DNA of 64,000 nucleotides. Source: Pirellulales bacterium (lineage in GTDB: Bacteria; Planctomycetota; Planctomycetia; Pirellulales; UBA1268). A model generated the notes under the pieces. It was not told where the DNA came from. It saw nothing but the letters and a program-made list of their open reading frames with translations, and searched no databases. Position numbers and translations under genes: made by a program. Positions 5,395 to 63,494 of the stretch are shown one piece after another (positions within the stretch are counted from its first letter, which is position 1; every line of letters starts with the position of its first letter). The DNA is taken from NCBI GenBank assembly GCA_049695995.1, contig JBAVTF010000085.1, positions 2,205 through 66,204 on the forward strand, read 5' to 3'.

Positions 5395-8061
5395 ATGGAG
5401 ATTCTTTCGCTCAAGGCTCTGCGCGGTCCGAACCAGTGGGCTTCCTTCCCCTGCCTCGAGGCCTGGGTCGATCTCGGCCGCCTCGAGGATTTTCCGTCGC
5501 ATACCCTGCCCGGATTCAACGACCGCATCATGACGTGGCTGCCCACGATGATCGAGCACCGCTGCTCGATCGGCGAGCGGGGGGGCTTCTTCGAACGGCT
5601 CCGCACCGGCACGTGGATGGGCCACGTGCTCGAGCATGTCACGCTCGAGCTTCAGACGCTCGCCGGGACGCCGGTGGGCTACGGCCGGGCCCGTGAAGCC
5701 AACACCCGCGGCGTCTACAAGGTCGTGATTGAATACAAGGAGGAGTCGTTCGCGATCGAGTGCTTCCACACGGCGCATCGGCTGCTGATGGCCGCGATCG
5801 ACGACACCACGTTCGATGTCACGACAGAGGTGAAGCGGCTGCGCAAGATCCTGCTCGATGTGCAGCTCGGCCCCAGCACGCGGTCGATCGTCGAGGCGGC
5901 GGTGGCGCGGGGGATTCCCGTGCGCAGGCTCAACGAGGGCTCGCTCGTGCGGCTCGGCCACGGCGCGAAGCAGCGGCGGATCATGGCGAGCGAGACCGAT
6001 GCCACCGGCGCCATCGGCGAGTCGATCGCCCAGGACAAGGAGCTGACGCGGGCGCTGCTCGCCGAGTCGGGAATTCCAGTGCCCGAAGGACGGCCGGTGA
6101 ACGATGCGGCCGATGCCTGGCGGGTGGCGGCGGAGATCGGCACGCCCGTCGTCGTGAAGCCGCGGTATGGCAACCAAGGCCGCGGCGTATCGGTGAATCT
6201 CTCCGGGCAGGCCGAGGTCGAGAAGGCCTGGCAGATCGCCCGCGACGAGGATTCATCGGTCGTGGTCGAGCGGTTCGTGGCCGGCGACGATTACCGGTTG
6301 CTCGTGGTCGGCGGCAAGATGGTGGCCGCGGCCCGACGGTATCGCCCGGCGGTCGTCGGCAATGGGGCGTCGACGGTCCGGCAACTCGTCGATGCCGTGA
6401 ACGAGGACCCGCGGCGGTGTGGCGACCACGCCGACGTGCTCTCGCCGATTCCGATCGACGAGGTGGCTCTGGCCGTGCTCGCCGAGCAGGGACTCATGCC
6501 GGAGAGCGTGCCCGCTGCCGAGCGGGTGGTGTTCCTGCGGCAAAATGCGAATCTCAGCACGGGCGGCACGGCGGAAGACGTGACAGATGCCGTACATCCG
6601 GAGGTGGCCGCGCGGGCCGTCGAGGCGGCGCGGATCGTCGGCCTCGACGTGGCCGGCATCGACATCGTGACCACCGACATCTCGCAGACGCTCGAGTCGC
6701 AGCGCGGCGCGGTGATCGAGGTCAACGCAGCCCCCGGCCTGCGGATGCACCTCCAGCCCACTGTGGGCACACCTCGCGAGGTGGGCCGCGCAATCATCGA
6801 CGCGATGTTTCCCGAGGGTGAGACCGGGCGGATTCCCACCGCCGCGGTCACGGGCACGAACGGCAAGACGACCGTGGTACGACTCCTGTCGCACATCTCG
6901 GCCACCGGGGGCGCGACCGTGGGCACGACCTGTACCGAGGGCGTGTGGATCGGTGGCCGCCAGATCGATGCCGGCGACTGTAGTGGACCGCAGAGCGCCC
7001 GCCGCGTGCTCGCCAATCCGACGGTGACAACGGCGGTACTCGAGACCGCACGAGGCGGCATCCTCCGCGAGGGCTGTGGCTTCGATCGCTGCGACGTGGC
7101 GGTGGTCACCAACATCGGCAAGGGAGATCATCTCGGCATCGGTGAGATCGACACGCCGGAGAAGCTGGCCTGGGTGAAGGGGGCGATCGTCGCGGCCGTG
7201 CGGCCCGGCGGCGCCGCCGTGCTCAATGCCGCCGACCCGCTCGTCGTCGACATGAAAAAATGGTGCAAGGGCGAAGTTGTCTACTTCGCGCTCGACCCGG
7301 CCAACCCACTCGTCGTGGAGCATCTCGCCGCAGGCGGCCGCGCGGCCACCATTCGCGAGGGCTGGATCGTGCTCTGCGACGGCCCTCGTGAGACGCGTCT
7401 TGCGCAGCTCGATAAGGTACCGCTGGTGCACAAGGGCCTGGTGCCATTCCAGGTGGAGAACGCGCTGGCGAGCGCCGCCGCCGCCTGGCGGCTCGGTGTG
7501 CCGCTGGAGCTCGTGCGCATCGGTCTGGAGACGTTCGCGAGCAATGCCGACGGTTCGCCCGGCCGGTTCAATCTGCTCGATCTCGAGGGCGTGTCGATCG
7601 TAGTCGACTACGGCCACAACGTGCCCTCGCTCGAGCAGATCTGCCGCGTGATCCGTGGGCTGCCGCACGGCCGCCGGATCGCGGTCTATTCCGCAGCCGG
7701 CGACCGTCGCGACGACGACATGCTCGAACAAGGCCGCCTCCTGGGCTCTGAGTTCGACCGTGTGGTCGTCTACGAGGATGCCTACATCCGTGGCCGTCAG
7801 CCGGGCGACATCACGCGGCTCATCGGGCAGGGCGTCGCCGCTGCGACCACCCCGCGGGCCACGGCCGCCGAATCCGGAGGCAACTGGTGCCAGTCGGTGC
7901 AGCTCGTGCTGGAGGCGGCCCGGCCGGGCGACCTCGTGCTCGTTCAGGCCGATGTCGCCGAGGAGGCGTTGCCGTGGCTCGTGGAGAAGTACGGCAGCCG
8001 GCTGCGGGAAACGACGCTCGACGAGATGGCCGCGACGGTCGTCGCCCGCCGGCTGGCGTAG
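5395..8061 (+). CDS. cphA: Cyanophycin synthetase
   Basis: The N-terminus is MEILSLKALRGPNQWASFP. An ATP-grasp block reads VVVKPRYGNQGRGV and a Mur-ligase-like P-loop reads VTGTNGKTT. Length is 888 aa from the ATG at 5395; the longer ORF-track start at 5230 adds non-homologous residues. Confidence 0.9.
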   Translation: MEILSLKALRGPNQWASFPCLEAWVDLGRLEDFPSHTLPGFNDRIMTWLPTMIEHRCSIGERGGFFERLRTGTWMGHVLEHVTLELQTLAGTPVGYGRAREANTRGVYKVVIEYKEESFAIECFHTAHRLLMAAIDDTTFDVTTEVKRLRKILLDVQLGPSTRSIVEAAVARGIPVRRLNEGSLVRLGHGAKQRRIMASETDATGAIGESIAQDKELTRALLAESGIPVPEGRPVNDAADAWRVAAEIGTPVVVKPRYGNQGRGVSVNLSGQAEVEKAWQIARDEDSSVVVERFVAGDDYRLLVVGGKMVAAARRYRPAVVGNGASTVRQLVDAVNEDPRRCGDHADVLSPIPIDEVALAVLAEQGLMPESVPAAERVVFLRQNANLSTGGTAEDVTDAVHPEVAARAVEAARIVGLDVAGIDIVTTDISQTLESQRGAVIEVNAAPGLRMHLQPTVGTPREVGRAIIDAMFPEGETGRIPTAAVTGTNGKTTVVRLLSHISATGGATVGTTCTEGVWIGGRQIDAGDCSGPQSARRVLANPTVTTAVLETARGGILREGCGFDRCDVAVVTNIGKGDHLGIGEIDTPEKLAWVKGAIVAAVRPGGAAVLNAADPLVVDMKKWCKGEVVYFALDPANPLVVEHLAAGGRAATIREGWIVLCDGPRETRLAQLDKVPLVHKGLVPFQVENALASAAAAWRLGVPLELVRIGLETFASNADGSPGRFNLLDLEGVSIVVDYGHNVPSLEQICRVIRGLPHGRRIAVYSAAGDRRDDDMLEQGRLLGSEFDRVVVYEDAYIRGRQPGDITRLIGQGVAAATTPRATAAESGGNWCQSVQLVLEAARPGDLVLVQADVAEEALPWLVEKYGSRLRETTLDEMAATVVARRLA

Positions 8062-8107
8062 GCCCGTTGCTCCGCAACGGGCTGCCCGTCACCGAGTGAC
8101 GGGCCTA
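8057..8107. repeat. Double-hairpin REP-like element, family A (copy 2, inverted)
   Basis: The sequence is cgtaggcccgttgctccgcaacgggctgcccgtcaccgagtgacgggcctac. Its reverse complement differs from copy 1 at about 3 positions. It fills the gap between convergent cphA and the MCE gene and probably acts as a bidirectional terminator. Confidence 0.8.
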
Positions 8108-8116
8108 CAAGCTGAC

Positions 8117-15697: not shown

Positions 15698-15799
15698 AGC
15701 GTCGGCTCACGGGACGGAATCGCGGCGGAGTCTAGGAGCCGAACCTCGTTTCGCAAAGCCATATCTCCGCAGGCTTTATAGTGGCAATCCAGCAAAGGT

Positions 15800-15889
15800 A
15801 GGCGAGGGGGTCGGTGCAAGCTCGAGGAGCATTTGGACCGAGTCTTCGAGGTCCCGCGACGAGACTTGTACCGCCCCTGAGCCGGCGAA
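15800..15889 (+). repeat. ~90-nt near-identical structured repeat, family C (copy 1)
   Basis: AGGCGAGGGGGTCGGTGCAAGCTCGAGGAGCATTTGGACCGAGTCTTCGAGGTCCCGCGACGAGACTTGTACCGCCCCTGAGCCGGCGAA matches 51606-51695 with 2 mismatches, in the same orientation. It lies 50 nt upstream of the thiE ATG. Confidence 0.85.
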
Positions 15890-15939
15890 TCTCTCTCGAG
15901 CCGCTACAAAAAACGTACAAAAGAAGTAGGTAGAAAATC

Positions 15940-17043
15940 ATGCAGACCAGTGAAGGCGGGCAGGGTGGCGTGGCTGGAGTGTGGCGGGCGATCGACGCCT
16001 CGGCCAACCGGGCGGCCGAGGCGATCCGGGTGCTCGAAGACGTGGCCCGGTTCGTGCTCGATGACGTCGCGCTCACGAGCCTTGCCAAACAGCTGCGGCA
16101 CGAATTGGCCGCGGCCCTCGCGCACCGGGCGCTCGAGTCGCGGATCGCGCTGCGCGACGTGACCGGCGACGTCGGCGCGGGTATGGCGAAGCCGGCGGCG
16201 CTGCCGCGGGCTTCGGTCGCCGATCTCGTCGCCGCGAATGCCGCCCGTGGCACGCAGGCCGTGCGCAGCCTCGAGGAATGCGTGGCCGTGATTGTGCCCG
16301 AGGCGGCGGCGGCGTTCGAGCGGATTCGGTATCGCCTCTATGCGCTCGAGCGGGCGGCGGCGGCGGCCGTGCGATCGCGGGATCGGCTGGCAGGCGTCAG
16401 GCTCTGCGTGCTCGTCGATGGCCGCGCCGACCAGGCTGCGTTCGAGCGGCTCGTGGAATCGCTGCTCGAAGCGGGGGTGCGGATGCTGCAGATCCGCGAC
16501 AAGTCGCTGGCCGTGCCGGCGCTGGCGGCTCGTGCCGCCGCGGCCGTGGCGGTCGCTCGTCGGCACGACCGCGAGCGGCCGGCGATCGTGATCGTGAACG
16601 ACCGGGCCGACGTGGCGGCGGCGATCAACGCCGATGGCGTGCATACGGGGGCCGACGACCTCGCGACGCCGCTCGTGCGGCGGGTGATCGGCCCGGATCG
16701 GCTGCTCGGCCGCACGGCCCACGACTTTGCCGAGGCCCGGGCCGCGGTGGACGAGGGGGCCGACTACCTCGGCATCGGCCCCTGCTTCCCGTCGCACACG
16801 AAATCGTTCGGCGAGTTCGCGCCGCGGGAGTTTCTCGCGCGGGTGGCCACGGAGATTGCGATGCCGGCCTTCGCGATCGGGGGCGTAACCCGCGAGCGGC
16901 TCGATGCACTGGCCGCGCTCGGCATCCGCCGCGTGGCGGTGGCGTCGGCGATCACAGCGGCTGCGGACCCCGGGGCCGAGGCCGCGGCCTTCATCGAGCG
17001 GCTGGCGGAACTGGATCGGTCGGCAGCGGATCAGTCGACGTAG
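15940..17043 (+). CDS. thiE: Thiamine-phosphate synthase with an N-terminal helical extension
   Basis: The C-terminal ~210 aa carry the ThiE TIM-barrel blocks (LQIRDK, VNDRADVAAAINADGVHTGADD, GADYLGIGPCFPSHTK, AIGGV). The N-terminal ~150 aa are an extra domain. Confidence 0.8.
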   Translation: MQTSEGGQGGVAGVWRAIDASANRAAEAIRVLEDVARFVLDDVALTSLAKQLRHELAAALAHRALESRIALRDVTGDVGAGMAKPAALPRASVADLVAANAARGTQAVRSLEECVAVIVPEAAAAFERIRYRLYALERAAAAAVRSRDRLAGVRLCVLVDGRADQAAFERLVESLLEAGVRMLQIRDKSLAVPALAARAAAAVAVARRHDRERPAIVIVNDRADVAAAINADGVHTGADDLATPLVRRVIGPDRLLGRTAHDFAEARAAVDEGADYLGIGPCFPSHTKSFGEFAPREFLARVATEIAMPAFAIGGVTRERLDALAALGIRRVAVASAITAAADPGAEAAAFIERLAELDRSAADQST

Positions 17044-21411: not shown

Positions 21412-24400
21412 TCAGATCACGCCGGGCACGTAGGTGATGCCCGTGGATGCCGACAGGCTCACGTCGCCCTGCGTATTGCCGGCGATCAAGTTGCGGATCA
21501 CCTGCGTGCGGCTGCACGAGCCCACGGCGAGGAGGCCGTAGCCGACGCTCGTCGCGATCGTGTTGGCCACGCCATCACCGCTGCCCCCCACGAGAAGGTT
21601 CGTCGCGGCATTGAGCAGCAGGCCGTTTGCGCCGCTGCCGGTGATCGTGTTGGACGCGATCACAGTGCCCTTCGCGTTGCCCGACACCTGGATGCCGTTC
21701 ACGCCGTTCGACACGATCGCGTTACCGCTGCCCGCACCACCGATCGCGTTCGATTGAGCCCCGGCAATCACGATCCCGCTGCCGAGGTTGGCCCGGATCT
21801 CGTTGCCCAGGATCTGATTGCCCTTCGACCCGGACACCGTGATCCCCGCACCGCCGTTGAAGAGGACGCGGTTGGCCAGGACGGGGGTCGAGCCGCCGAT
21901 GACGGTGCCGCGGGTGCCCGATCCGAGGAAGATGCCGCCGAGCGCGTTGGGGAGCGGGTCGATCGCCTCGAAGCCGGCCCCGATCACGGAGTTGAAGATC
22001 GTGTTGTTGCGGGCATTGCCCGTGATTTCGATCCCATAACGGTAGTTGCCCGAGAGGTGCACCTTCGTCTCGACCGAGGGTTGGAAGCCGCCGATCGCGT
22101 TGCCGTGGGCGTTGCCCGTGATGAGGATGCCGCTGCCGTAGTTGGGGATGGCCTCCTCGATCTTTGAGTTCGTGCCGGTCGCGGTGTCCTCCACGGTGAC
22201 GCCCGTGGCCTTTCCGGCGATCACGATCCCGTTGCCAAAGTTGCCCGCCACGAGGCAGGTGCGGATCGTGTTGTTGCCGCCGGTCGCCGTGATGTGGATG
22301 CCGTCGAGCCGGTTGGGGGCGGTCCCGCCGAAGGCCACGATGCCCACGAAGCTGTTGAAGGCGACGAAGCCGGTGGCTTTGCCGGCGACCTCGATGCCAT
22401 AGCGGTTGTTGCCGGAGTTGACGTTGCCGAGCGGGATCGGGCCGCCCACGGTCGTGCGGGCCGAGGAGCCGTTGACGAGGATGCCGCTCAGCGTGTTGGC
22501 CACGACGGTGGCGTTGTCGGCGCCCACGCCCGTGAAGTTGGCCTGGACGATCGTGTCGTTGGAGTTCGTGATCCGCAGGCCGTTGCCGCCGTTGCCGGAG
22601 AGCACGTTGTAGAACACGAACGGGCTCTGCTGGAACGTGGTGCCCAAGAGCGATGTGCCGTTGGCGCCGACGATCGCCACGCCGTCGGCCGCATTGCCGA
22701 GAGCCGTGTTGCCCGACGCCGTCGTGCCGATGAAATTGCCCGAGAGTGTGGTGGCCGTGGCGCCCCCCGTGATGAGCACGCCGTTGGCCCGGTTGCCCGA
22801 GATCAGGTTGCCCTGCGGCGGCCGCACGAACACGCCGTTCGTCGGGTCATTGCCGCCGGTCATCGTGCCGCCGATCAGGTTGCCGCTGGCCCGGCTCGTG
22901 ACACGGATGCCGTTGTTGCCGTTGGGCACGGCAAACCGGCCGGTGACGTCGGTGCCGATCAGGTTCCGCTCGACCACGTTGTCGGTGCCGAGGATCCGCA
23001 CGCCATCGGCGCCGTTGCCGCTGATCAGGTTGCCGCCCGGTACGATCGTGGCCTGGTAGGCGCCAACACCGCCACTGCTCGGGTCGATGCCCACCACGGC
23101 ATTGCCATACACCGAGTCGGCGAAAGGAGTGCCCGAGTCGGACGGCTCGAGATCGGTCCACTGCATCTCGCCGAACGAGCCGTCGGGATTCCGTGTGACG
23201 CTGGCGAAGCCGGCGACCGGCACGCCATCGGCGAGGGCCGTTCCCGCGAGCGTGTAGATGCCTGGCTGGACGCCGCTGATGCCTTCGAAGTGCGTGATGA
23301 CCGACGTGGCCCCGGCAGGTGGCACGTAGGAGAACGACTTCCAGTTGGAGAAGAGGCCGGTGGCCGAGTCGTAATCGACGAGCAGAGCCTCCGAGAGCGG
23401 CACCCCCGGGTTGAGAATGTTGTTGATCGGGCTGTTCGACCAGCCGCCGGCGATCGTGTAGCTCGTGCCGCCGTTGTGCCAGATGCCGTAGGCGGTGTTG
23501 GCCGCGGAGCCGGGGTAGATCAGTTCGCGATACTGCTCCGTGGCGACGTCATAGACGTAGGCCCGCCCGCCGCCGAGCGGATTGCCATCCGGGCCCGACG
23601 CATCGTAGTTGCCCACGACCAGGCCGCCGGCCGTGCTGTGCGGGATGTTCCAGACGGTTCCCGTTGGCGCCGACGGCAGGGGTGACGGCATCGCCACGTA
23701 ATTTGCCGGATTGGCCACGTCGTCCACCGTGCCTTCGAAAATGAATCCGAATTCAGTCGCAGAGCCCGCATTCGAGTAGGTGCCCACGATCCGCAGCTCG
23801 CCGTCGCCGAGGTTGTCGGCCGAGTAGGAGGTGGTGCCGTCGGTCGTCTCACCGGGCTGATTCGGCATGACCATCACATAGCCCGCGCCCCCCTGGGCCG
23901 TGATCGGGCCGACGTAGAGCAGGCCTGCCGTTTCGCTCGTGGCACTTGGATTCGCGGTCGTGCCAGTGATCAGATACTGTCCCGGCGAGCCGGCCGTCGT
24001 CAGCCCCTGCCAGCCGTTGACGGGGAGCGTGCCGCCGCCCGCGGCAGCCACGGTCGCCGTGTTTGCAGAATAGGAAATCGCCGGGTTCGTGCCGATCTGA
24101 TTCCCGGATCCCCGCGCCGTGATGAGCACGCCGGAGCCCGTGTTGCCGGCGGCCGTGGTGCCGTCAGGCAGCACGCCGATGAAGTTGCCCGCGAGCGTGA
24201 TGTCCGAGGCATCGAGCGTCACGCCGGCCCAACTGGCCCGCACGAGCGACAGGCTCGTGAGTGAAGAGCCGTCGCTGCCGGGGGCGAACCGCAGGCCGGT
24301 CTGGCCGCGGAAGTTGACGGTGACTGCGGGTGCGCCGGTGAACCCTGGCGCCGTGAAGCCGTTGATCGCGACCGTGTCGGTGATGGCCGGGAGGGCGGAG

Positions 24401-51058: not shown

Positions 51059-51591
51059 TCGTCACCACGACCGACATCGACGGCGTGCTGATCCTGGCCC
51101 CCAAGGTCTTCGGTGATTCCCGCGGCTTTTTTTTCGAGAGCTTCAATCAGCGGGTGTTCGACGAGGCGGTCGGCAGGCCGGTGGCGTTCGTGCAGGACAA
51201 CCACAGCCGCAGCGGTCGCAACGTGCTCCGCGGTCTGCACTACCAGGTGGAGCGGCCGCAGGGAAAGCTCGTGCGGGTGGTGTCGGGCAGCGTGTTCGAC
51301 GTGGCCGTCGACATCCGCCGTGAGTCGCCCACCTTCGGCCGCTGGGTGGGCGTGGAGTTGTCGGCCGAGAACAAGCGGCAGCTCTGGATTCCGCCCGGCC
51401 TCGCCCACGGCTTCGTGGTCCGCAGCGAATCGGCCGACTTCCTCTACAAGACCACCGACTACTGGTTCCCGGAACACGAGCGGTGCATCCGCTGGGACGA
51501 CCCCGACCTCGCCATCGACTGGGGCCTCACCGAACCCCCGCTCGTCTCCACCAAAGACGCCGCCGGCACCCCGTTCGCTTCGCTCTCGTAG
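51055..51591 (+). CDS. rfbC: dTDP-4-dehydrorhamnose 3,5-epimerase
   Basis: Contains [32 protein letters not shown] and AHGF. Its start overlaps the rfbA stop. Confidence 0.92.
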
Positions 51592-51605
51592 CTCGAGTCA
51601 CAGGG

Positions 51606-51695
51606 AGGCGAGGGGGTCGGTGCAAGCTCGAGGAGCATTTGGACCGAGTCTTCGAGGTCCCGCGACGAGACTTGTACCGCCCCCGAGCCGGCGAG
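51606..51695 (+). repeat. ~90-nt structured repeat, family C (copy 2)
   Basis: Matches 15800-15889 with 2 mismatches and starts 15 nt after the rfbC stop. The core (51602-51691) is flanked by the 8-nt direct repeat CGAGTCAC (51594-51601 and 51692-51699). Confidence 0.85.
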
Positions 51696-51717
51696 TCACC
51701 CGCTGTGGCGTGGGTTC

Positions 51718-51851
51718 GGGGCTGGCCATGCCCCGAGAGCCGGACGCTCGCTTCGGGCATCCCTGCCCTTCGCTCGCTCGATGGCGGCTGCGGTCTCGGC
51801 ATCCTGCCTTCGCTTGCCGCCAACGCCGGCTTCGGGGCAGTGGCCAGCCCC
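51718..51851 (+). repeat. 134-nt element with ~18-nt terminal inverted repeats, family E (copy 1; MITE-like or structured RNA)
   Basis: The ends are GGGGCTGGCCATGCCCCG...CGGGGCAGTGGCCAGCCCC. Internal blocks (GCCGGACGCTCGCT, CTTCGCTCGCTCGATGGCGGC, CATCCTGCC) are shared with the reverse complement of 59207-59339. Confidence 0.8.
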
Positions 51852-51871
51852 TCACGGCGTTTTGGTTCGCG

Positions 51872-51897
51872 CCGTAGTCCGCACACTCCGTGTGCGG
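51872..51897. repeat. Hairpin repeat family B (copy 3)
   Basis: The sequence ccgtagtccgcacactccgtgtgcgg is identical to 12106-12131. Confidence 0.75.
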
Positions 51898-51968
51898 CCC
51901 ACAGTCTGAATGCCGCAGGCCCGTCTACTCCGCCGCGGGTCGGTCTCCTGTGGCGTGGGTTTGGGTCT

Positions 51969-53831
51969 TCAGTTCGTCAGAAGCTTGCCTATTTCAGTGG
52001 CGAGGATGATGCCCACGCCCATGAGTGATTCGCCTGCAATCAGGCCGCTTGAAACGGGCACGGTGTAATCCTCGGCGGCTTTGGGGGCGGCTTTCGCTGC
52101 CAGCCAGGCGAGAAGGGCGCCGGCGAACATCGAGATGGCGTTGAATGCCGGGATCACGCCGGCGATGCCCAGGCCCGTCGTCGAGGGGAGCCAGGGTTTC
52201 CAGTGGGCGGGGCTGAACTCTTCCAGGAGCGTGAGCACGACACCGAGCAAGGCGCCGACCCCGATCGCCTCCATGGCCCCGGCCGGGAGCGCGTCGAATC
52301 CCTTGGCGAGCAGCAGGGCCACGCTTTCCCAGACCTTGGCCGAGGGGGCCGGCAGCGACTCGGAGCCGAGTCGTGACGGGTCGGACTGCACGACGAACAG
52401 GTAGGCGGGCACGGAGACGAGCGTGCCGGCGATGACGCCGAAGAACTGTGAGATCGTCTGCTTGCGCGGGTTGCCGCCGAGCAGATAGCCGCTCTTGAGA
52501 TCGGTGAGGAGATCGGCGGCGTGGGAGGCGGCGCCGGCGGTGATCGAGGCGGTCATCAGGTTCGTGGTGATGTTGCCGGGAGCAATGCCGCCGTAGATGA
52601 GTTGGGTGATTTTCCCCATGGCGCCGATCGGCGTGATGTCGGTCTCGCCAGTGGCCCGGGCGGCCACGATCGAGAGCAGGAACGTGACCAGCACGGCGAG
52701 GATGCCCATCCACCACGAGATGCCGAAGAGCCAGTGGCCGAGCACAACGCATGCGGTGCCGAAGACGAGCGAGCCCGCGATGAACCAGGAGGCTGGCACT
52801 TCGACGCGAGCCAACGGGTCGTCGGCCGCGGGGCGTGGGCCGCCGATGATCGCCGACAGCCCGCCGAAGGCCCGCAGGATCGTCCGCCACTTGAGGGCGA
52901 AGGAGAGCAGGCCCGACGTGACCATCATCGCCGTGGCCGGCCAGAGCACCCACGACACGATCCCGCGGTAGCCGGGGCCGACGATGCCCTGGGCGACGAG
53001 CGTCGGGCCGATGATGCCGTAGCAGATGAGCGAGCCGACGAGCATCGAGGCAGCCACCCGCATCCCCATGATCGCGCCGGCCGCCACCATGATCAGCGAG
53101 CCCTCGAAGCCGATGGTGTATTTCGTGAGCCAGTCGCGGGCTGCGGCCACTGGCAGCAGCGGGATCTCTGCGGGAAAGGCCCAGGCGGCGAGCCGTGTGA
53201 ACTGGGGCACGAGGTCGCGCCACAGGGCGACGAGACCGCCGCCGATGGCTGCCAGGAAGAGCGATCGGCCCTTGGCTGCCGCAGCGGCGGAGCCGGCGTG
53301 AAGGCTGCGGAGCGTCTCGGCGGTCGCGATGCCGGAGGGGAAGGGAAGCTGGTCGATGTTGATGAGCTGCCGTTTGAGCGGGATGGCGAGGCACACTCCG
53401 AGCAGGGACACGGCGCCGATCCAGAGCCCGACTTCCCAGCCGGTGAGCAGCCGGCCGGTGGTGAGCGTGAGCGCGGGGATCGCCGACACGAGGCCCGCGC
53501 TCGACATGTAGCCGGCGGCGCTGGCGGCGCTCGACATCGTGTAGTTTTCGAGCAGGCTGAACGGCCGGTCACGCCAGCCGGGCACGACCTGTTCGAGAAA
53601 CTTGAAGACGGCGTAGGCGATGATGCAGGCGGTGATCGTGACGCCGAGGCCCCAGCCGGTCTTGAGGCCGACGTAGAGATTCGAGATCGACATCACGCCG
53701 CCGATCACCATGCCGGTGATCACGGCCCGCGGCGTGAGCTGCACGGCGTGATCGCCGGCGTAGACGTTGTCGAGCCACCACCGCGCCGCCTCGCGGTCGT
53801 CGGTGAACGGCGGATGCTCGTGGGCATGCAT
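51969..53831 (-). CDS. OPT-family oligopeptide transporter
   Basis: This 620-aa polytopic protein has an N-terminal block LTPRAVITGMVIGGVMSISNLYVGLKTGWG that is characteristic of OPT-superfamily transporters. Confidence 0.8.
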   Translation of the reverse strand: MHAHEHPPFTDDREAARWWLDNVYAGDHAVQLTPRAVITGMVIGGVMSISNLYVGLKTGWGLGVTITACIIAYAVFKFLEQVVPGWRDRPFSLLENYTMSSAASAAGYMSSAGLVSAIPALTLTTGRLLTGWEVGLWIGAVSLLGVCLAIPLKRQLINIDQLPFPSGIATAETLRSLHAGSAAAAAKGRSLFLAAIGGGLVALWRDLVPQFTRLAAWAFPAEIPLLPVAAARDWLTKYTIGFEGSLIMVAAGAIMGMRVAASMLVGSLICYGIIGPTLVAQGIVGPGYRGIVSWVLWPATAMMVTSGLLSFALKWRTILRAFGGLSAIIGGPRPAADDPLARVEVPASWFIAGSLVFGTACVVLGHWLFGISWWMGILAVLVTFLLSIVAARATGETDITPIGAMGKITQLIYGGIAPGNITTNLMTASITAGAASHAADLLTDLKSGYLLGGNPRKQTISQFFGVIAGTLVSVPAYLFVVQSDPSRLGSESLPAPSAKVWESVALLLAKGFDALPAGAMEAIGVGALLGVVLTLLEEFSPAHWKPWLPSTTGLGIAGVIPAFNAISMFAGALLAWLAAKAAPKAAEDYTVPVSSGLIAGESLMGVGIILATEIGKLLTN

Positions 53832-53886: not shown

Positions 53887-54040
53887 ACAAGCCCTGAGCG
53901 CGAGCGAGGGGATCACGCGGCGGAAGCCGCGGAGGCATTGCCACAACTCCGGCGCCGCCGACGCTTCCGCATCGGGATCCCCCGGCTTGTGCCTGGGGGC
54001 TTTGATGAGAAAGGATCCCCCGGCTTGCGCCTGGGGGCTT
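53887..54040. repeat. Repeat family D cluster (one right-arm unit plus two tandem left-arm units)
   Basis: ACAAGCCCTGAGCGCGAGCGAGGGGATC lies at 53887-53914. GGATCCCCCGGCTTG(T/C)GCCTGGGGGCTT lies at 53975-54003 and 54013-54040. The same arms form a palindrome at 61701-61772. Confidence 0.75.
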
Positions 54041-54071
54041 GGATCAAGGTGCCCCCTGGGGGGCGGCGTCC

Positions 54072-57324: not shown

Positions 57325-59193
57325 ATGACGGATCACGAATCCATGACTGCAGCAGCCGCGGGTGTCGCGAGTGAGCCCGACTTCGGCGGCTTCGACCACA
57401 TGGTCGAGTCGCTCGCCCGCTGGAGCGGGTCGCTGCCGCAGTGGCCGCCGGCCGGCCGCGTGCAGGCCGAGTGGCAGGCGATTGAGCCGCGGCTTGACCG
57501 GGCCCGACGCGAGCTGTCGCGGGTGCTCGTGGTGGGCGTGGTGGGCGGCACGGGCACGGGCAAGAGCACGCTCGTGAACGCGCTGGCAGGGCAGGTGGTG
57601 ACCGACGCGGGCGACGTGGCGAGGCCGACCACGACGAGCCCGATCGTCGTGGCGGCACCGGATGTCGATCTCTCCTGGCTGCCGGTGGAGGCGATGGGGG
57701 CGCGGGTCGTCCGCAGCGATGCGCCGGCCGTCGCCAACATCGTGCTGGTCGACTGCCCAGATCCCGACACGCAGGCCGAGCCTGATGCCGCCGCTGTATC
57801 GGTTGCCGCGCCGGCTCGGCCGAGCGACACCAATCGCAACCGCGATCTCCTGGAGGCCGTGCTGCCCGCCTGCGACGTGCTCCTGCTCGTCGCCACCGCC
57901 CAGAAATACCGGTCGTGGATCGTGGCCCGCGAGGTGGCCGCGTTCGCGCCGGGACGGCCGCTGTTCTTTGTGCAGACGCATGCGGCGCGGGATCCCGACA
58001 TCCGGGGCGATTGGCAGCGGGAGCTCGAGTCGCAGGGCTTCAGTGTGCCGCGGATCTTTCGGCTCGACGGCGTCGAGGCGGCGCGGCGCGCCGCAGCCGG
58101 CCTCGAGCCTGAGCCCGGCTTTCGCGACCTCGTGGCGGCGATCGACGAGGAGCTGGTCGGCCGTGCCGCCCGCCGCGTGCGCCGCACCGGCGCCGTCGAT
58201 CTCACGGCCTGGTTCACGCAGCAGTGCCGTGGGCAACTCGGGCCCCTGCGCGGCCCAGTGGAACAGCTGGCCGCGGGCGTGCGAACCGAGCGGTCGCGGC
58301 TCGAGGGGCTGCTCGCCACGTCGATCTCCGCGCAGCTGCGCGGCCAGCGTCACGGCTGGCAGCGGCTCGTCACCGACGAGATCGTGCACCGCTGGCACGG
58401 CGGTCCCTTCGCCACGTTTCTGCACGCGGTCTCGGCGGTCGCCGCGCTCTGGCAGCGGGTGCGGCCGGCGCCCGGCGTGATTGGGCGGCTCGTCACGGGT
58501 GGCTCCGCCGCGGTGACGACACACGACACCGCCGGCTGGCAGTCGGTGGCGGAGCTGGGCCTCTCCGAAGCCGAGGTTGAGCAGTCGCGGACGGTGCTCG
58601 CGGGGCTGGCGGCGCGGGCGCGGATCGGTGAGCCGCTCGTGAGCCGCCCGCGACTGGAGACCACGCGAGTGCAGTCGCTCGCTGCAGCCGTGCTCGACCG
58701 CACAGGGCAGTGGCTCGGCGGCTCCATCGGCCGCCTGGTCGCCGACCGGCGGGGCCGGGTGGCAGGCCCGCTCGTGCACTGGGCGTTCGAGCTGCTCTTC
58801 ACGGGCCTGTTCGTGGCCGTGCTCGCGCGTGCCGGCTGGAGCTTCTTCTACGGCCACCTCTGGATGGGGCGGCCTGTGAGTGGCACCGGCTTTCTCCAGG
58901 AAGCGCTCGTGTGGCTCATGCTCTGGGGACTATGCCTCCGCTGGGCCGTCTTCGGGCTGGTGCGACGCGGGCTCGACCGCGACATCGCGACGGTCGTGGA
59001 TGGTGTGCCGGCGGCGCGGCTCGTCGATCCACTGCTGGCTGACTTCGCCGAGGCGGCCGCGCAGGTGACTGAGTTTCTCGATGGTGGCGATCGGCTGGCG
59101 GCTGAGGCGGAGCAGATGGCGGCGGCTCTCGGCGAGCCGGTTGGCGGCCTCGGCCGGCTACGGGCGATCTCCGACCGCCGCCCCTCTTGCTGA
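57325..59193 (+). CDS. Membrane-anchored P-loop GTPase, dynamin-like (paralog 2)
   Basis: The ATG lies 1 nt after the upstream stop. G1 is GGTGTGKS (57544-57567). The G3-like motif is LVDCPDPDT and the G4-like motif is ATAQKY. A helical stalk-like region is followed by a two-helix hydrophobic hairpin (LVHWAFELLFTGLFVAVLARAGW...ALVWLMLWGLCLRWAVFGLV). Confidence 0.75.
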   Translation: MTDHESMTAAAAGVASEPDFGGFDHMVESLARWSGSLPQWPPAGRVQAEWQAIEPRLDRARRELSRVLVVGVVGGTGTGKSTLVNALAGQVVTDAGDVARPTTTSPIVVAAPDVDLSWLPVEAMGARVVRSDAPAVANIVLVDCPDPDTQAEPDAAAVSVAAPARPSDTNRNRDLLEAVLPACDVLLLVATAQKYRSWIVAREVAAFAPGRPLFFVQTHAARDPDIRGDWQRELESQGFSVPRIFRLDGVEAARRAAAGLEPEPGFRDLVAAIDEELVGRAARRVRRTGAVDLTAWFTQQCRGQLGPLRGPVEQLAAGVRTERSRLEGLLATSISAQLRGQRHGWQRLVTDEIVHRWHGGPFATFLHAVSAVAALWQRVRPAPGVIGRLVTGGSAAVTTHDTAGWQSVAELGLSEAEVEQSRTVLAGLAARARIGEPLVSRPRLETTRVQSLAAAVLDRTGQWLGGSIGRLVADRRGRVAGPLVHWAFELLFTGLFVAVLARAGWSFFYGHLWMGRPVSGTGFLQEALVWLMLWGLCLRWAVFGLVRRGLDRDIATVVDGVPAARLVDPLLADFAEAAAQVTEFLDGGDRLAAEAEQMAAALGEPVGGLGRLRAISDRRPSC

Positions 59194-59206
59194 CAATACG
59201 CCGTGA

Positions 59207-59339
59207 GGGGCTGCCCGTGCCCCGGGAGCCGGTGTATGCCGCCGAGCGCAGCCAGGATGGCGGAGCGAAGGCGGCATCCGAGCGAGCGAAGAACAAGATG
59301 TTTGTAGCGAGCGTCCGGCGACGGGGCATGGGCAGCCCC
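59207..59339 (-). repeat. 133-nt TIR element, family E (copy 2, inverted relative to copy 1)
   Basis: The ends are GGGGCTGCCCGTGCCCCG...CGGGGCATGGGCAGCCCC. It begins 14 nt after the GTPase-2 stop. Homology to 51718-51851 was read block by block. Confidence 0.8.
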
Positions 59340-59439
59340 GAACTTTCACCAACTGGGTGAACCACCAGTCGGGGGCACAGGCTCGTGGTGGTATCATCCG
59401 TGCTTGTGCGGTCATCGTGCCGCCGGGCGGTCTCGCAGG

Positions 59440-60966
59440 ATGCTCGTTCACCGCATGATCAACATGTCGCCTCGAGCAGTTGCCCCGTGGGGCGTGTGTG
59501 CGCTGGCGCTGGTCGCGGGAGTTGCGACTGCCGGGGCCGCCGAGCTCGATGAGGTGCGGCGGCAGGGCGAGCTCGTGTGGGCTGCCGATCAGGAAGGGGG
59601 CGGGCCGCATGTGTTTCCCGCCGCCGACGATCCGACGAGGCTCACCGGCTTCGAGGTCGACTTCGCCGAGCTGCTCGCGGCCGAGCTGGGTGTGAAGGCC
59701 CGGTTTCAGCAGGGGCAGTGGGATCGGCTGCCACTGCTTCTGGGGCGTTCGGCCGACTGCGTGATCAACGGGATCGAGCTCACGCCGGAGCGGCAGCGTG
59801 ACTACCGCTGCTCGCGGCCTTACTTCTCCTATGCGCTCCAGCTCCTCGGCCGCCGCGAGGGGCCGCTCGACGCATTCGAGCGGCTCTCCGGTCCTGGGCC
59901 GCACGGGCCTTGGAAGGTGGGCGTGCTCACCGGATCGGCGGCCGAGACGGTGATGCGTGGCCGCACCGACCTCGACATCGATGTGGTGGGCTACGACGGC
60001 ACGCTCGATTCCCTGGAGCAGGTGCGAACGCGGGTGCTCGACGCGGCGGTGATGGACGACTGCATCTTCGCCTTCTACGCCGACCGGTTCGCCGACTTGC
60101 GCACCGTGGGGCGGCCGTTTGCCGGCGGCCTCTATACGGTGCTCACTGCCCGCGACACGCCCGAGCTCGCGGCCGCGATCGACACGGCGATCGGGCGGCT
60201 GATCGCCGACGGTCGGCTCAAGGCGCTCTATGACCGTTGGGATCTCGCCGGTCGGCAGCAGATGCTGCTCTTGCGCGATGCTGCCGAGATTCCTCCGGCA
60301 CCGTCCCGCAGCACCTGGGACCTCGTCTGCGAGACGCTGCCGCTGCTCGTGCGGTCGGCCGGCATGACGGTGCTGCTGTCGTGCGTCTCATTTCCGCTCG
60401 CGATCCTGATCGGCCTGGCCGTGGCCGTCGGGCGGCTCTACGGTCCGCCGTTCCTGCGGCCGCTGCTCACTGGGTATGTCGAGGTGCTCCGCGGCACGCC
60501 GCTCATGCTTCAGCTCTATGCGATCTTCTTCCTGCTGCCGAAGGTGGGGCTGGCCCTGCCGGCGGTGGTGGCGGCCGTCGCCGGCCTTGCGCTCAACTAC
60601 TCGGCCTACGAATCGGAGATCTACCGGGCCGGACTCAAGGCCGTGCCCATCGGGCAGTTCGAGGCCGCGCTGGCACTTGGGCTCACGAAGTGGCAGGCCC
60701 TGCGGCACGTGCTCGTGCCCCAGGCGGTGCGGATCGTGATGCCGCCGGTGACGAGCGACTTCATCGCGCTCTTCAAGGACACGAGCGTCTGCTCGGCGAT
60801 CACGGTCATCGAGCTGACGAAGCGGTACAGCGTGCTCGCGCTGTCGACAGGGCGAATCGTCGAACTCGCCGTCGTCACGGCGCTGCTCTATCTGGCGATG
60901 AGCTGGCCCCTCGCGCTGCTCTCGCGCTGGTTCGAGCGGCGGCTCGAGTCGGGAGGGCAGCGATGA
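59440..60966 (+). CDS. Amino-acid ABC transporter, fused periplasmic binding domain plus permease
   Basis: A signal peptide and family-3 SBP blocks (GFEVDFAELLAAELG, QWDRL) are followed by a polar-amino-acid permease with the EAA loop YESEIYRAGLKAVPIGQFEAALALGLT. Start is ATG 59440, 59455 or 59464. Confidence 0.8.
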   Translation: MLVHRMINMSPRAVAPWGVCALALVAGVATAGAAELDEVRRQGELVWAADQEGGGPHVFPAADDPTRLTGFEVDFAELLAAELGVKARFQQGQWDRLPLLLGRSADCVINGIELTPERQRDYRCSRPYFSYALQLLGRREGPLDAFERLSGPGPHGPWKVGVLTGSAAETVMRGRTDLDIDVVGYDGTLDSLEQVRTRVLDAAVMDDCIFAFYADRFADLRTVGRPFAGGLYTVLTARDTPELAAAIDTAIGRLIADGRLKALYDRWDLAGRQQMLLLRDAAEIPPAPSRSTWDLVCETLPLLVRSAGMTVLLSCVSFPLAILIGLAVAVGRLYGPPFLRPLLTGYVEVLRGTPLMLQLYAIFFLLPKVGLALPAVVAAVAGLALNYSAYESEIYRAGLKAVPIGQFEAALALGLTKWQALRHVLVPQAVRIVMPPVTSDFIALFKDTSVCSAITVIELTKRYSVLALSTGRIVELAVVTALLYLAMSWPLALLSRWFERRLESGGQR

Positions 60967-61652: not shown

Positions 61653-61700
61653 TGCGTCGTGGGCGGTTGGAGGGTCGGCCCTGCTGCCGCTTCCGCGGCA

Positions 61701-61772
61701 GGATCCCCCGGCTCGCGCCTGGGGGCTTGTATGAGACACTCACACAAGCCCTGAGCGCCAGCGAGGGGATCC
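61701..61772. repeat. Repeat family D, complete imperfect palindrome
   Basis: The sequence is GGATCCCCCGGCTCGCGCCTGGGGGCTTGT-atgagacactcac-ACAAGCCCTGAGCGCCAGCGAGGGGATCC. The arms are about three-quarters complementary. Confidence 0.75.
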
Positions 61773-61886: not shown

Positions 61887-62669
61887 TTACTTGACCGAAA
61901 CCGTCCGGCTCACCGCCACGACCGCCTTGCTGTCGACCTTCTTCGAGGCCGAGGCATCGGGCGTCGGGGCAGCCGGCTCGACCGTCGCACCGCAGGCCGG
62001 CTCGCAGCCACACGCGGGCTCCGCACCGCAGCCGGGCTCGCAGCCAGCGCTGCAGTCGGGCTCGCAGCAGCTGGTGCAGCTCTTGCGGCACTTCTTCGCG
62101 TTGTGGATAGCGCGGAGAAGGTCACGGATCGGGGTCGCACACTTCTTCACACCGCAGCAGCCAGCGGCAGCACCGCAGCTCGGCTCGCAGCAGCCAGCAC
62201 CGGCGTCGCAGGCCGGCTCCGCACAGCCGTTGCCGGCGTCGCAGGCGGGCTCAGCGCAACCGTTGCCAGCACCGCAGGCCGGCTCGCAGCAGCTATCGCC
62301 GCAGCAGCCATGGTGCTTCCGCTTGCACTTCTCGAACAGGCCCTTCAGCCCGCCGAAAAGGTCATGCTTCTTCCGCAGACCGCAGCAGCTCGCGCCACCG
62401 CAGCATCCAGCACCGGCGTCGCAGGCCGGCTCGCAGCAGCCGTTGCCGGCGTCGCAAGCGGGTTCTGCACAGCCGTTACCAGCACAGGCATTGCCAGCAC
62501 CGGCATCGCAGCCGGGCTCGCAGCAGCCAGCACCGGCATCGCAGCCGGGCTCACAGCACGAGGTGCAGCCCTTATGGCCGAGCATCTTGTTCAGGAGCTC
62601 GAAACCGAAGGACTGGCTACAAACGGTGACGCCCAGAACCAGCGCACCGAGAAACATCATACGCTTCAT
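61887..62669 (-). CDS. Secreted cysteine-rich repeat protein (CCEP(A/G)CDAG(A/N)G units)
   Basis: AAGGAG lies upstream of the ATG at 62669. The signal peptide is MKRMMFLGALVLGVTVCSQSFG. About a quarter of the mature residues are Cys, in repeats such as CCEPGCDAGAGCCEPGCDAGAGNACAGNGCAEPACDAGNGCCEPACDAGAGCC. Basic spacers (RKKHDLFGGLKGLFEKCKRKHHGCC) separate the repeat blocks. Confidence 0.7.
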   Translation of the reverse strand: MKRMMFLGALVLGVTVCSQSFGFELLNKMLGHKGCTSCCEPGCDAGAGCCEPGCDAGAGNACAGNGCAEPACDAGNGCCEPACDAGAGCCGGASCCGLRKKHDLFGGLKGLFEKCKRKHHGCCGDSCCEPACGAGNGCAEPACDAGNGCAEPACDAGAGCCEPSCGAAAGCCGVKKCATPIRDLLRAIHNAKKCRKSCTSCCEPDCSAGCEPGCGAEPACGCEPACGATVEPAAPTPDASASKKVDSKAVVAVSRTVSVK

Positions 62670-63102: not shown

Positions 63103-63130
63103 TTGACATCCCCATCGCAACCGTTAAACT
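63103..63130 (+). promoter_or_regulatory. Sigma-70-like promoter for the riboswitch transcript
   Basis: TTGACA (63103-63108), a 16-nt spacer and TAAACT (63125-63130) place the predicted TSS just before the riboswitch 5' end. Confidence 0.35.
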
Positions 63131-63139
63131 CTGCCGACG

Positions 63140-63330
63140 ACTCTGGTGGCCGGGAGGAAGCATCTGCTTTCGTCAGGCAAACAGGGAACTCCGGTGTGAA
63201 TCCGGGACGGCCCCGCCGCTGTGACCAGGCGCCGAGGTCGGCTGTGTCGAGCCATTGCGGTGCCTGTGTGGCCCGCGAGAAGGCATGCAGCCGGCTGAGC
63301 CTGGGAGTCAGAAGACCTACCAGGTGTCAG
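63140..63330 (+). promoter_or_regulatory. Cobalamin (B12) riboswitch
   Basis: The conserved core is readable: AACAGGGAACUCCGGUGUGAAUCCGGGACGGCCCCGCCGCUGUGACC (63180-63226), GCCAUUG...GAGAAGGC (63251-63284) and the B12 box GGGAGUCAGAAGACCUACC (63303-63321). This parallels the E. coli btuB leader blocks AGGGAAUCCAGUGCGAAUCUGG...CGCAGCGGUAAGG, GCCAUUCGGUGGGAAG and AGCCCGAAGACCUGCC. Confidence 0.85.
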
Positions 63331-63494
63331 GAGTCTGCCGGACCGCGAGGGCGGAATGGTGGGCACGGTCGAGTGATCGACCGGTCGCAAGGCACTCAGG
63401 ATCCGCTCCTGCAAGCTCCCGCTTCGCCGACGGTCGCGCCTGCGCCTGCATGCGCGTGCCCGGGCTGGGCGTGCGCGTGCAGGTCGGCAGTGGC

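Follow-up and report, generated by a model that had tools for sequence, protein, structure and literature searches.

The 64,000-nt stretch of a Pirellulales bacterium contig (JBAVTF010000085.1) analysed here, referred to below as the window, carries two copies of an intergenic palindromic element of about 140 nt. The copies lie in opposite orientations at 51718-51851 and 59207-59339. Copy 1 sits between an rfbC-like dTDP-sugar isomerase gene (stop 51591) and a convergent OPT transporter gene (stop 51969), while copy 2 sits after a dynamin-like GTPase gene and before an SBP_bac_3/BPD_transp_1 transporter gene. This context was checked through the existing annotation of syntenic contigs, which agrees with the intergenic position that the initial annotation gave to both copies. 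That annotation also located the copies correctly, although pairing reaches 4 nt beyond each of the ends it had drawn (Table 1). It likewise placed copy 2 directly after the GTPase stop, where the gap to the earlier-drawn start is 13 nt and not 14.

The two copies align with each other along their entire length (mean column identity 85%, or 71% with gaps counted), so their similarity is not confined to the GC-rich ends. As first described, both share the internal blocks GCCGGACGCTCGCT, CTTCGCTCGCTCG and CATCCTG and end in 18-nt inverted arms. The arm GGGGCTGSCCRTGCCCCG occurs exactly three times in the window, solely at element ends, and the fourth arm, on the right of copy 1, departs from it by a 1-nt bulge. 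When up to three mismatches are allowed, the arm has 6 matches in the window against 1.19 expected, a number reached in 0/100 shuffles. Measured against dinucleotide shuffles, the copies fold at -88.8 kcal/mol (z = -6.5) and -74.9 kcal/mol (z = -5.9). A third copy was sought throughout the window by nhmmer --max and sensitive profile searches, and none was found.

A repeat family of freshwater Planctomycetota

The copies represent a previously undescribed family of structured interspersed repeats, about 140 nt long, in freshwater Pirellulales and related Planctomycetota. That the pair might be the only two copies is contradicted by two scans, the counts of which are lower bounds. In the first, species-representative genomes were searched for the arm followed after 90-120 nt by CAGCCCC, which yields at least 119 loci in about 50 assemblies, species-level metagenome-assembled genomes (MAGs) of Planctomycetota. 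The carriers are nearly all freshwater-lake MAGs labelled Pirellulales, Planctomycetaceae or Planctomycetia, with some "Kuenenia", and a single MAG holds up to 11 loci among the matches listed. These loci provide 128 distinct full copies of 129-134 nt, again among the matches listed, and all can be oriented by their asymmetric interior. The second scan, of metagenome contigs, used the internal blocks only and ignored arm sequence; it recovers the element independently of its ends at no fewer than 120 loci or contigs. The analyses below use an alignment of 129 sequences (A2) and an independent metagenome set of 113-114 copies.

Besides full copies, family loci contain truncated forms, isolated arms, arm units repeated in tandem and chimeras of the element with other repeats. 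Among L090 4850-4950, L016 3554-3594 and L034 853-893, the arm unit forms tandem arrays (GAACTCAGCGA + GGGGCTGCCCATGCCCCG), and a left end truncated to about 35 nt directly precedes a full copy. The latter composite recurs at two loci of a single MAG and may therefore itself have been copied. Distant-mode searches of plasmid and phage collections with the element give no match in either. Across the whole window Rfam 15 gives no gathering-score match at either copy, and over 51560-52000 there is only noise at E <= 10. The arm sequence, as DNA or RNA, was not found in the searchable literature, in which work on Planctomycetes with REP-associated tyrosine transposases (RAYTs), miniature inverted-repeat transposable elements (MITEs) or palindromic repeats amounts to nothing beyond a general survey of repetitive extragenic palindromic (REP) sequences (PMC3733652).

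Fold, flanks and favoured strand

The sequences of A2 share a fold in which an 18-bp closing stem and a 5-bp GCCGG/CCGGC helix lead to a three-way junction bearing hairpin A and a longer, interrupted hairpin B. In this structure 93.7% of paired cells are complementary, compared with 35-47% when partners are slid by 1-3 columns. Double-sided, compensatory change is seen at 20/49 pairs, and by the shuffle-based statistics used here the 435 compensatory cells compare with 152 +/- 16 in column shuffles, the observed value being reached in 0/500. Individual columns illustrate the range of pair types: columns 40/50 hold GC 50, CG 49 and AU 15 times; columns 86/95 GC 70 and CG 57; columns 71/108 UA 57 and CG 54; and columns 73/106 AU 42, CG 35 and GC 27. 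In the metagenome set collected independently of the ends, 39/114 copies have arms that depart from the consensus at several positions yet remain complementary, for example GAGGCACCCCCGTACCCTC with GAGGGTACGGGGGTGCCTC. The arms thus keep their pairing, while the loops, the GCCGG helix and the junction keep their sequence.

The two strands of this palindrome are not equivalent. Read on the (+) strand of copy 1, the non-canonical cells are A.C in 177 cases and G.U in 64; outer-stem cells alone give 85 to 13, and single pairs go as far as 29:1 and 23:1. An A.C mismatch on one strand is a G.U wobble on the other, and therefore the reverse complement, termed F, is the strand on which substitutions have been tolerated. 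Read on F, the independent metagenome set has 188 G.U and 65 A.C cells. F is also the more stable strand in 120/129 copies with RNA parameters (mean difference -7.9 kcal/mol), in 125/129 with DNA parameters and in 111/113 copies of the metagenome set. The same holds for both window copies, where minimum free energies on F and on the opposite strand are -95.7 and -90.2 kcal/mol for copy 1 and -90.7 and -76.3 kcal/mol for copy 2. Wobble-versus-mismatch counts and folding energies together identify F as the folded strand.

The sequence immediately outside the earlier-drawn ends continues the same helix. On F the element is framed by G-Y-G-A on its left and G-A-R-C on its right. Among 127 copies, positions -1/+1 are A.G in 96 and Watson-Crick in 29, positions -2/+2 are G.A in 94 and Watson-Crick in 26, positions -3/+3 are C-G in 57 and U-A in 35, and positions -4/+4 are G-C in 117. 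Taken together, the inner two positions read GA/GA in 89/127 copies and as complementary GA/TC or TC/GA in 22/127, and UC...UC never occurs. Since GA/GA is exchanged for Watson-Crick pairs and never for UC/UC, the flanks represent an extension of the helix through tandem G.A pairs, rather than a target-site duplication (TSD). The closing helix on F thereby reaches about 27 pairs, shut by tandem G.A, a Y-R pair and a G-C pair. One subfamily has a constant and fully paired extension, GGCTTC...GAAGCC, and because this recurs at unrelated loci the apparent 6-7 nt flank is part of the element. No direct repeats of variable sequence flank the copies, and no conserved motif lies further out in their flanks.

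Two other explanations of flanking sequence were considered and set aside. A 14-nt direct repeat at 51703 and 51949 (CTGTGGCGTGGGTT) was tried as a long TSD of copy 1 and rejected, as the motif adjoins copies in other genomes too. A palindromic GYRC insertion target as the source of the GY...RC flanks is disfavoured by the subfamily in which a longer, constant and complementary flank stands at unrelated loci.

These features bear directly on the proposal of the initial annotation that the element is MITE-like. Many features agree with it: the element is multi-copy, non-coding, intergenic and small, it ends in inverted repeats, some copies are truncated, and occupancy and orientation vary between relatives. 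A classical MITE, however, would have arisen by deletion from an insertion sequence (IS) and would depend on a DDE transposase that binds constant 18-nt terminal inverted repeats (TIRs) and produces TSDs. Here the flanks pair, the arms covary, the internal hairpins are maintained by compensatory change, and no IS with matching ends was found, either in the window or across 1.75 Mb of loci carrying the element. Strand asymmetry is likewise unexplained by a mechanism acting on double-stranded DNA. A classical MITE is on these grounds very improbable, and the anatomy is better described by the long-stem structured element that had been offered as the alternative.

Maintenance of structure over arm sequence, one favoured strand and a size within the attC range would also suit a recombination site of the attC, XerCD/dif or oriT type, folded as a single strand and used by a site-specific recombinase or relaxase. 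The copies have no RYYYAAC/GTTRRRY boxes, GTT/AAC being present in only about one third of them, and they are scattered among housekeeping genes in both orientations with no same-orientation cassette arrays and no integrase nearby. We consider such a site extremely improbable.

Table 1. Positions of the two window copies and their structural parts
Feature	Position	Strand	Remarks
Copy 1, full structured element	51714..51855	- (F on -)	nhmmer E = 1.5e-26
Copy 1, closing-stem arm GGGGCTGGCCATGCCCCG	51718..51735		site-specific G/C swap, compensated in partner arm
Copy 1, hairpin A	51743..51779	-	loop 51758-51765 = CAGGGATG on F
Copy 1, hairpin B	51781..51822	-	loop 51800-51806 = CAGGATG on F
Copy 1, partner arm CGGGGCAGTGGCCAGCCCC	51833..51851		1-nt bulge
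Copy 2, full structured element	59203..59343	+ (F on +)	starts 9 nt past GTPase stop 59191-59193; nhmmer E = 1.8e-35
Copy 2, closing stem, 5' arm GGGGCTGCCCGTGCCCCG	59207..59224	+	GTGA before arm at 59203-59206
Copy 2, hairpin B	59236..59277	+	loop CAGGATG at 59253-59259
Copy 2, hairpin A	59280..59315	+	loop CAAGATG at 59294-59300; GGA motif lost
Copy 2, closing stem, 3' arm CGGGGCATGGGCAGCCCC	59322..59339	+	followed by GAAC 59340-59343; G.U pair with 5' arm on + strand

Gene context, GGA loops and turnover at sites

Placement relative to genes was determined with a gene finder based on a codon model, whose calls on the syntenic contigs agree with those of the database. In each data set 148-150 of about 150 full copies are intergenic. 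Where both neighbours could be called, the genome set has 49 copies in convergent contexts, 29 between tandem genes with F co-directional, 27 between tandem genes with F antisense and 5 in divergent contexts; the corresponding numbers for the metagenome set are 37, 27, 27 and 2. Combined, 86 copies are convergent, 110 tandem and 7 divergent, whereas background gene pairs in the same loci are 68% tandem, 16% convergent and 16% divergent. Copies are therefore about 2.6-fold enriched between convergent genes. They face gene 3' ends (at least one in 196/203 cases) and avoid divergent promoter regions. Within tandem pairs F has no preference relative to transcription (56 co-directional, 54 antisense), and within 40 nt of a stop codon the non-F orientation relative to that gene is the commoner (37 versus 16).

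This placement raises the question of whether the element is a host-selected bidirectional device, that is, a terminator without a U-tract, an exonuclease barrier or an operon insulator, repeated through gene conversion. Such a role would account for the very stable GC-rich hairpin on both strands, the predominance of gene 3' ends, the convergent enrichment, the lack of an orientation bias and the separation, in the window lineage, of GTPase and transporter genes that overlap in relatives. The terminator in its canonical form, which the initial annotation had entertained, can be excluded: neither strand of either window copy has a T-run after the stem, and a terminator scan finds no terminator-like site at either. 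No sigma-70-like promoter is present at the window copies. Terminators would have no need of a conserved three-way junction, conserved loops and a favoured strand, some copies lie 8-102 nt upstream of ruvB, and the arrival of the same 140-nt sequence at unrelated sites in about 50 species would be left unexplained. As a primary explanation this is improbable. As a secondary effect, a block to 3' exonucleases or insulation by the transcribed hairpin is plausible on the predicted energies.

The loops of the two hairpins suggest a further possibility. On F they mostly read C-AGGAU-G or C-AUGGAU-G, and GGA is found in loop B of 118/129 copies, in loop A of 107/129 and in both loops of 98/129. Such loops resemble the binding site of CsrA, which is A(N)GGA presented in a hairpin, and Planctomycetes are among the phyla that carry CsrA (PMC10729762); FliW-type control of CsrA has been linked to them as well (PMC4682653). 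A fliW-csrA gene pair lies on the element-bearing metagenome contig L172 (4660-5426), about 670 nt from a copy, which documents CsrA for that carrier. Its CsrA is 52% identical to those of E. coli and B. subtilis over 54-61 aa. Among the genome-set loci csrA was not found, so that its only occurrence is in the metagenome set.

The element might accordingly be a functional RNA module, in which the F transcript is selected and its two GGA loops bind an RNA-binding protein, CsrA being the obvious candidate, either to regulate the adjacent mRNA or to titrate the protein, with multiplication incidental. The tolerance of G.U pairs and the higher stability of F agree with this, as does the persistence of orthologous copies upstream of ruvB in four species, co-oriented with that gene. 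The random orientation in tandem contexts, however, means that in about one quarter of all copies F runs antisense to the genes on either side. The element is not framed by a conserved promoter or terminator, the non-F orientation prevails close to stop codons, and GGA has been lost from one loop of window copy 2. The likeness to a CsrA site was moreover noticed post hoc and concerns a predicted site only. Overall we judge the RNA module unlikely. In a more specific form the F transcript would be a portable, self-propagating CsrA-binding cassette of 140 nt in untranslated regions, wiring operons into the FliW-CsrA regulon or acting as a distributed CsrB-like sponge; this prediction from sequence is a long shot. 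We know of no CsrA antagonist RNA in Planctomycetota.

Comparison of related genomes provides a view of how long copies have remained at their sites. L120, L121 and L123, whose GTPases are 87-93% identical, carry both window copies at the corresponding sites and with unchanged orientation, and the compensated arm variant of copy 1 is also present at the orthologous site in L120 and L123. In L122, a 90%-identical relative, and in the P0019 contig (71%), the GTPase and transporter genes overlap by 4 nt and leave no intergenic region. L125 and L126, from a 77%-identical relative, do carry an element between these genes, in the opposite orientation and at another distance from the stop, and the sequence around it is unalignable. 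Occupancy therefore differs between relatives in units of entire intergenic regions. GTPase and transporter genes that overlap in relatives are, in the window lineage, set apart by the element together with a new spacer, and this operon seems to have come apart in the lineage that carries the element. The leader at 59344-59480, upstream of the SBP_bac_3/BPD_transp_1 gene (GGTGGTATCATG...CGCAGGATGCTCGTTC), is conserved in L120, L121, L123 and L125 and absent where the two genes overlap (L122 and the P0019 contig).

At the ruvB site the element lies upstream of the gene in four species. In pairs that include L008 or L064, RuvB is 86-88% identical and third codon positions 59-70% identical; the elements are 75-90% identical, and the intergenic DNA around them cannot be aligned. 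By contrast, L062 and L071 have RuvB proteins that are 99% identical; their elements at the ruvB site, which differ by swaps of entire stems, share only 76% identity. Stem-B variants have likewise been exchanged between the copies of the window and those of L120. Sites shared across species combined with stem swaps argue for a family that is long-lived at its sites yet subject to replacement or gene conversion among copies.

Mode of spread and relation to known systems

Our preferred reading, to which we give about an even chance, is that the element constitutes a new family of non-autonomous repeats of the REP, BIME (bacterial interspersed mosaic element) and ERIC (enterobacterial repetitive intergenic consensus) kind, spreading through a folded single strand. 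The family would have spread and been homogenised via a folded single-stranded F intermediate, most likely single-stranded DNA and less probably an RNA copy. An enzyme encoded at another place in the genome would act on this intermediate in trans, as in REP/REPIN-RAYT pairs or other hairpin-recognising systems. A TIR-binding DDE transposase with target duplication is probably not the route. Copies would survive downstream of genes, where they are presumably harmless, and be excluded from divergent promoter regions. Once transcribed, in either orientation, the hairpin (-75 to -95 kcal/mol) would probably act as a 3'-end barrier or operon insulator as a secondary effect. That F is favoured whatever the direction of neighbouring transcription makes a constraint on the propagation intermediate likelier than one imposed by a role in host mRNA.

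Several observations weigh against spread by this route. The initial annotation noted that the window encodes no transposase, and none is found near the other copies either. Within the 1.75 Mb covered by the approximately 8-kb neighbourhoods of copies, a regular-expression search for HUH...Y motifs in six-frame translations found none, tblastn with IS200 TnpA and E. coli RAYT as approximate queries found no homologue, and no RAYT gene was found beside any copy. The neighbouring genes are housekeeping genes with no mobilising enzyme among them: recurrent neighbours and the open reading frames (ORFs) between close copies are ordinary genes, such as those for DUF1015, S49 peptidase, RuvB, FabG/FabD/ACP, CarA, ABC transporters and DUF1559. 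Among close relatives no precise empty site with intact flanks was recovered, and insertion is accordingly supported at less than base resolution; its boundaries are unreadable because the closest relatives either share the insertion or have no intergenic region. Both orientations occur within single loci, which argues against a strict bias to one replication strand of the IS200/IS605 kind. Finally, retention at orthologous sites despite near-saturated neutral sites, together with the GGA loops, would equally fit an RNA function selected by the host. One HUH-like match, DSVHMLLELAP, was discarded as an out-of-frame reading of another repeat, D8, described below.

The family is of interest beyond this locus. 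REP, BIME, ERIC and Correia repeats have been studied almost entirely in Proteobacteria, and how those without a transposase spread is an old question. Hundreds of copies in about 50 species, sampled by decades of lake time-series metagenomes, represent a large comparative data set on this question. The conserved determinant is a single-strand fold with a defined active strand, junction and loops, and not the ends, which turns recognition into a testable problem. The element is a candidate for a new structured-element entry with a covariance model, which would aid the annotation of Planctomycetota MAGs, in which repeats of this type interrupt assemblies and lead ORF calling astray. Should the GGA loops bind CsrA, mobile DNA would be linked to global post-transcriptional control.

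The window and the loci of the family contain several other repeats. D8, of about 91-99 nt, is present in the window at 15793-15891 and 51599-51697 (96% identical to each other) and in other MAGs at 91-98% identity (L040 7550-7640, L073 6837-6927, L084 3848-3938 and L074 3168-3258). It has no match in Rfam, and its predicted fold is a long hairpin of -50 kcal/mol. In 3/6 well-matched copies the distance to the 140-nt element is no more than about 20-30 nt, and the other window copy precedes a gene start at 15941 by about 50 nt. A GTAG...CTAC palindromic doublet of about 55 nt (GTAGGCCCGTCAC..GTGACGGGC.GCCCGTTGC..GCAACGGGCCTAC) occurs in the window at 1587-1647 and, inverted, at 8048-8108, and also in L033, L053 and L122. 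Its resemblance to a classical GTAG REP dimer or REPIN hints that a RAYT may also be encoded in these genomes. The small GTAG-tagged hairpin repeat GTAGCACAGGTTTTCAACCTGTG has 55 occurrences in 16 loci (L011-L030 and others) and often brackets the 140-nt element within 60 nt, as at L014 1065-1087/1257-1279 and L023 4996-5018/5189-5211. A short GC hairpin repeat, GGATCCCCCGGCTYGYGCCTGGGGGCTT, which could be a terminator-like or REP-like unit, is found in the window at 53950-54048, as two tandem copies, and at 61676-61736, as well as in intergenic regions of L038, L047, L066, L072, L106, L124 and L125. Repetitive protein domains are probably the product of two long, imperfect tandem or periodic repeats within genes, one at 62023-62572 with a 33-nt period and rich in GCAGC/CCGGC and one at 21525-24172 with periods of about 66-100 nt. 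The window also holds a cobalamin riboswitch (RF00174, 80.6 bits) at 63127-63338, upstream of a DUF1559/SBP_bac_10-type gene.

Among characterised systems, we place the element functionally beside REP/REPIN-type elements, with ERIC as a looser parallel. REP sequences lie between same-direction and convergent genes, their dimers fold into large hairpins, and some families have no dedicated transposase (PMC3733652). The element is like REP, BIME and REPIN sequences in being a high-copy extragenic palindrome located downstream of genes, in forming one long hairpin from two inverted arms, in occurring as solo units, clusters and mosaics with other repeats, and in implying a folded single-stranded form. 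Unlike them, it has an arm (GGGGCTGCCCRTGCCCC) whose self-stem is only 5 bp and which bears neither a GTAG nor a CGTC tag. On one strand a CGTC string does overlap the inner end of the arm, yet stem and loop are of sizes that misfit the CGTC families of the REP survey (PMC3733652). The interior of about 95 nt is also the best-conserved part of the element, branched and with conserved loops, in contrast to a loose spacer. Membership in the GTAG or CGTC REP families, as in MITEs defined by TIRs and TSDs, is not supported.

ERIC sequences, or intergenic repeat units (IRU), of Enterobacteriaceae are imperfect palindromes of about 127 bp that are intergenic in or next to transcription units, in either orientation, and conserved across species. 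To our knowledge they too have no transposase. The element is similar in size, in being an imperfect palindrome throughout, in its intergenic location in either orientation and in its conservation across species. Its sequence is probably unrelated, it belongs to another phylum, and it has a branched three-way fold with covariation and a strand preference. The very different GC content and the phylum make membership of ERIC unlikely. Correia elements (NEMIS) duplicate a TA target and have sequence-conserved TIRs. Like these and other TIR-bearing MITEs, the element measures about 100-150 bp, ends in TIRs and has many copies between genes, which would be co-transcribed with their neighbours; it differs from them in having no TSD and covarying arms.

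Two further comparisons are with systems defined by structure. The GGA in hairpin loops, the spacing of about 40 nt between the two loops and the presence of CsrA on a carrier contig are reminiscent of CsrB/RsmZ and of CsrA targets; unlike CsrB/RsmZ, the element is not a dedicated small RNA gene with its own promoter and terminator, has only two sites per unit, occurs in both orientations and has a CsrA interaction that is predicted only. Integron attC sites, of 57-141 nt, are recombined as a folded single strand, strand-selectively and according to structure over sequence. The element resembles them in its strand preference, its conservation of structure over sequence and its size, and would do so in being recombined as a folded single strand; it departs from them in having no R boxes, cassette arrays or integrase and in residing beside core housekeeping genes.

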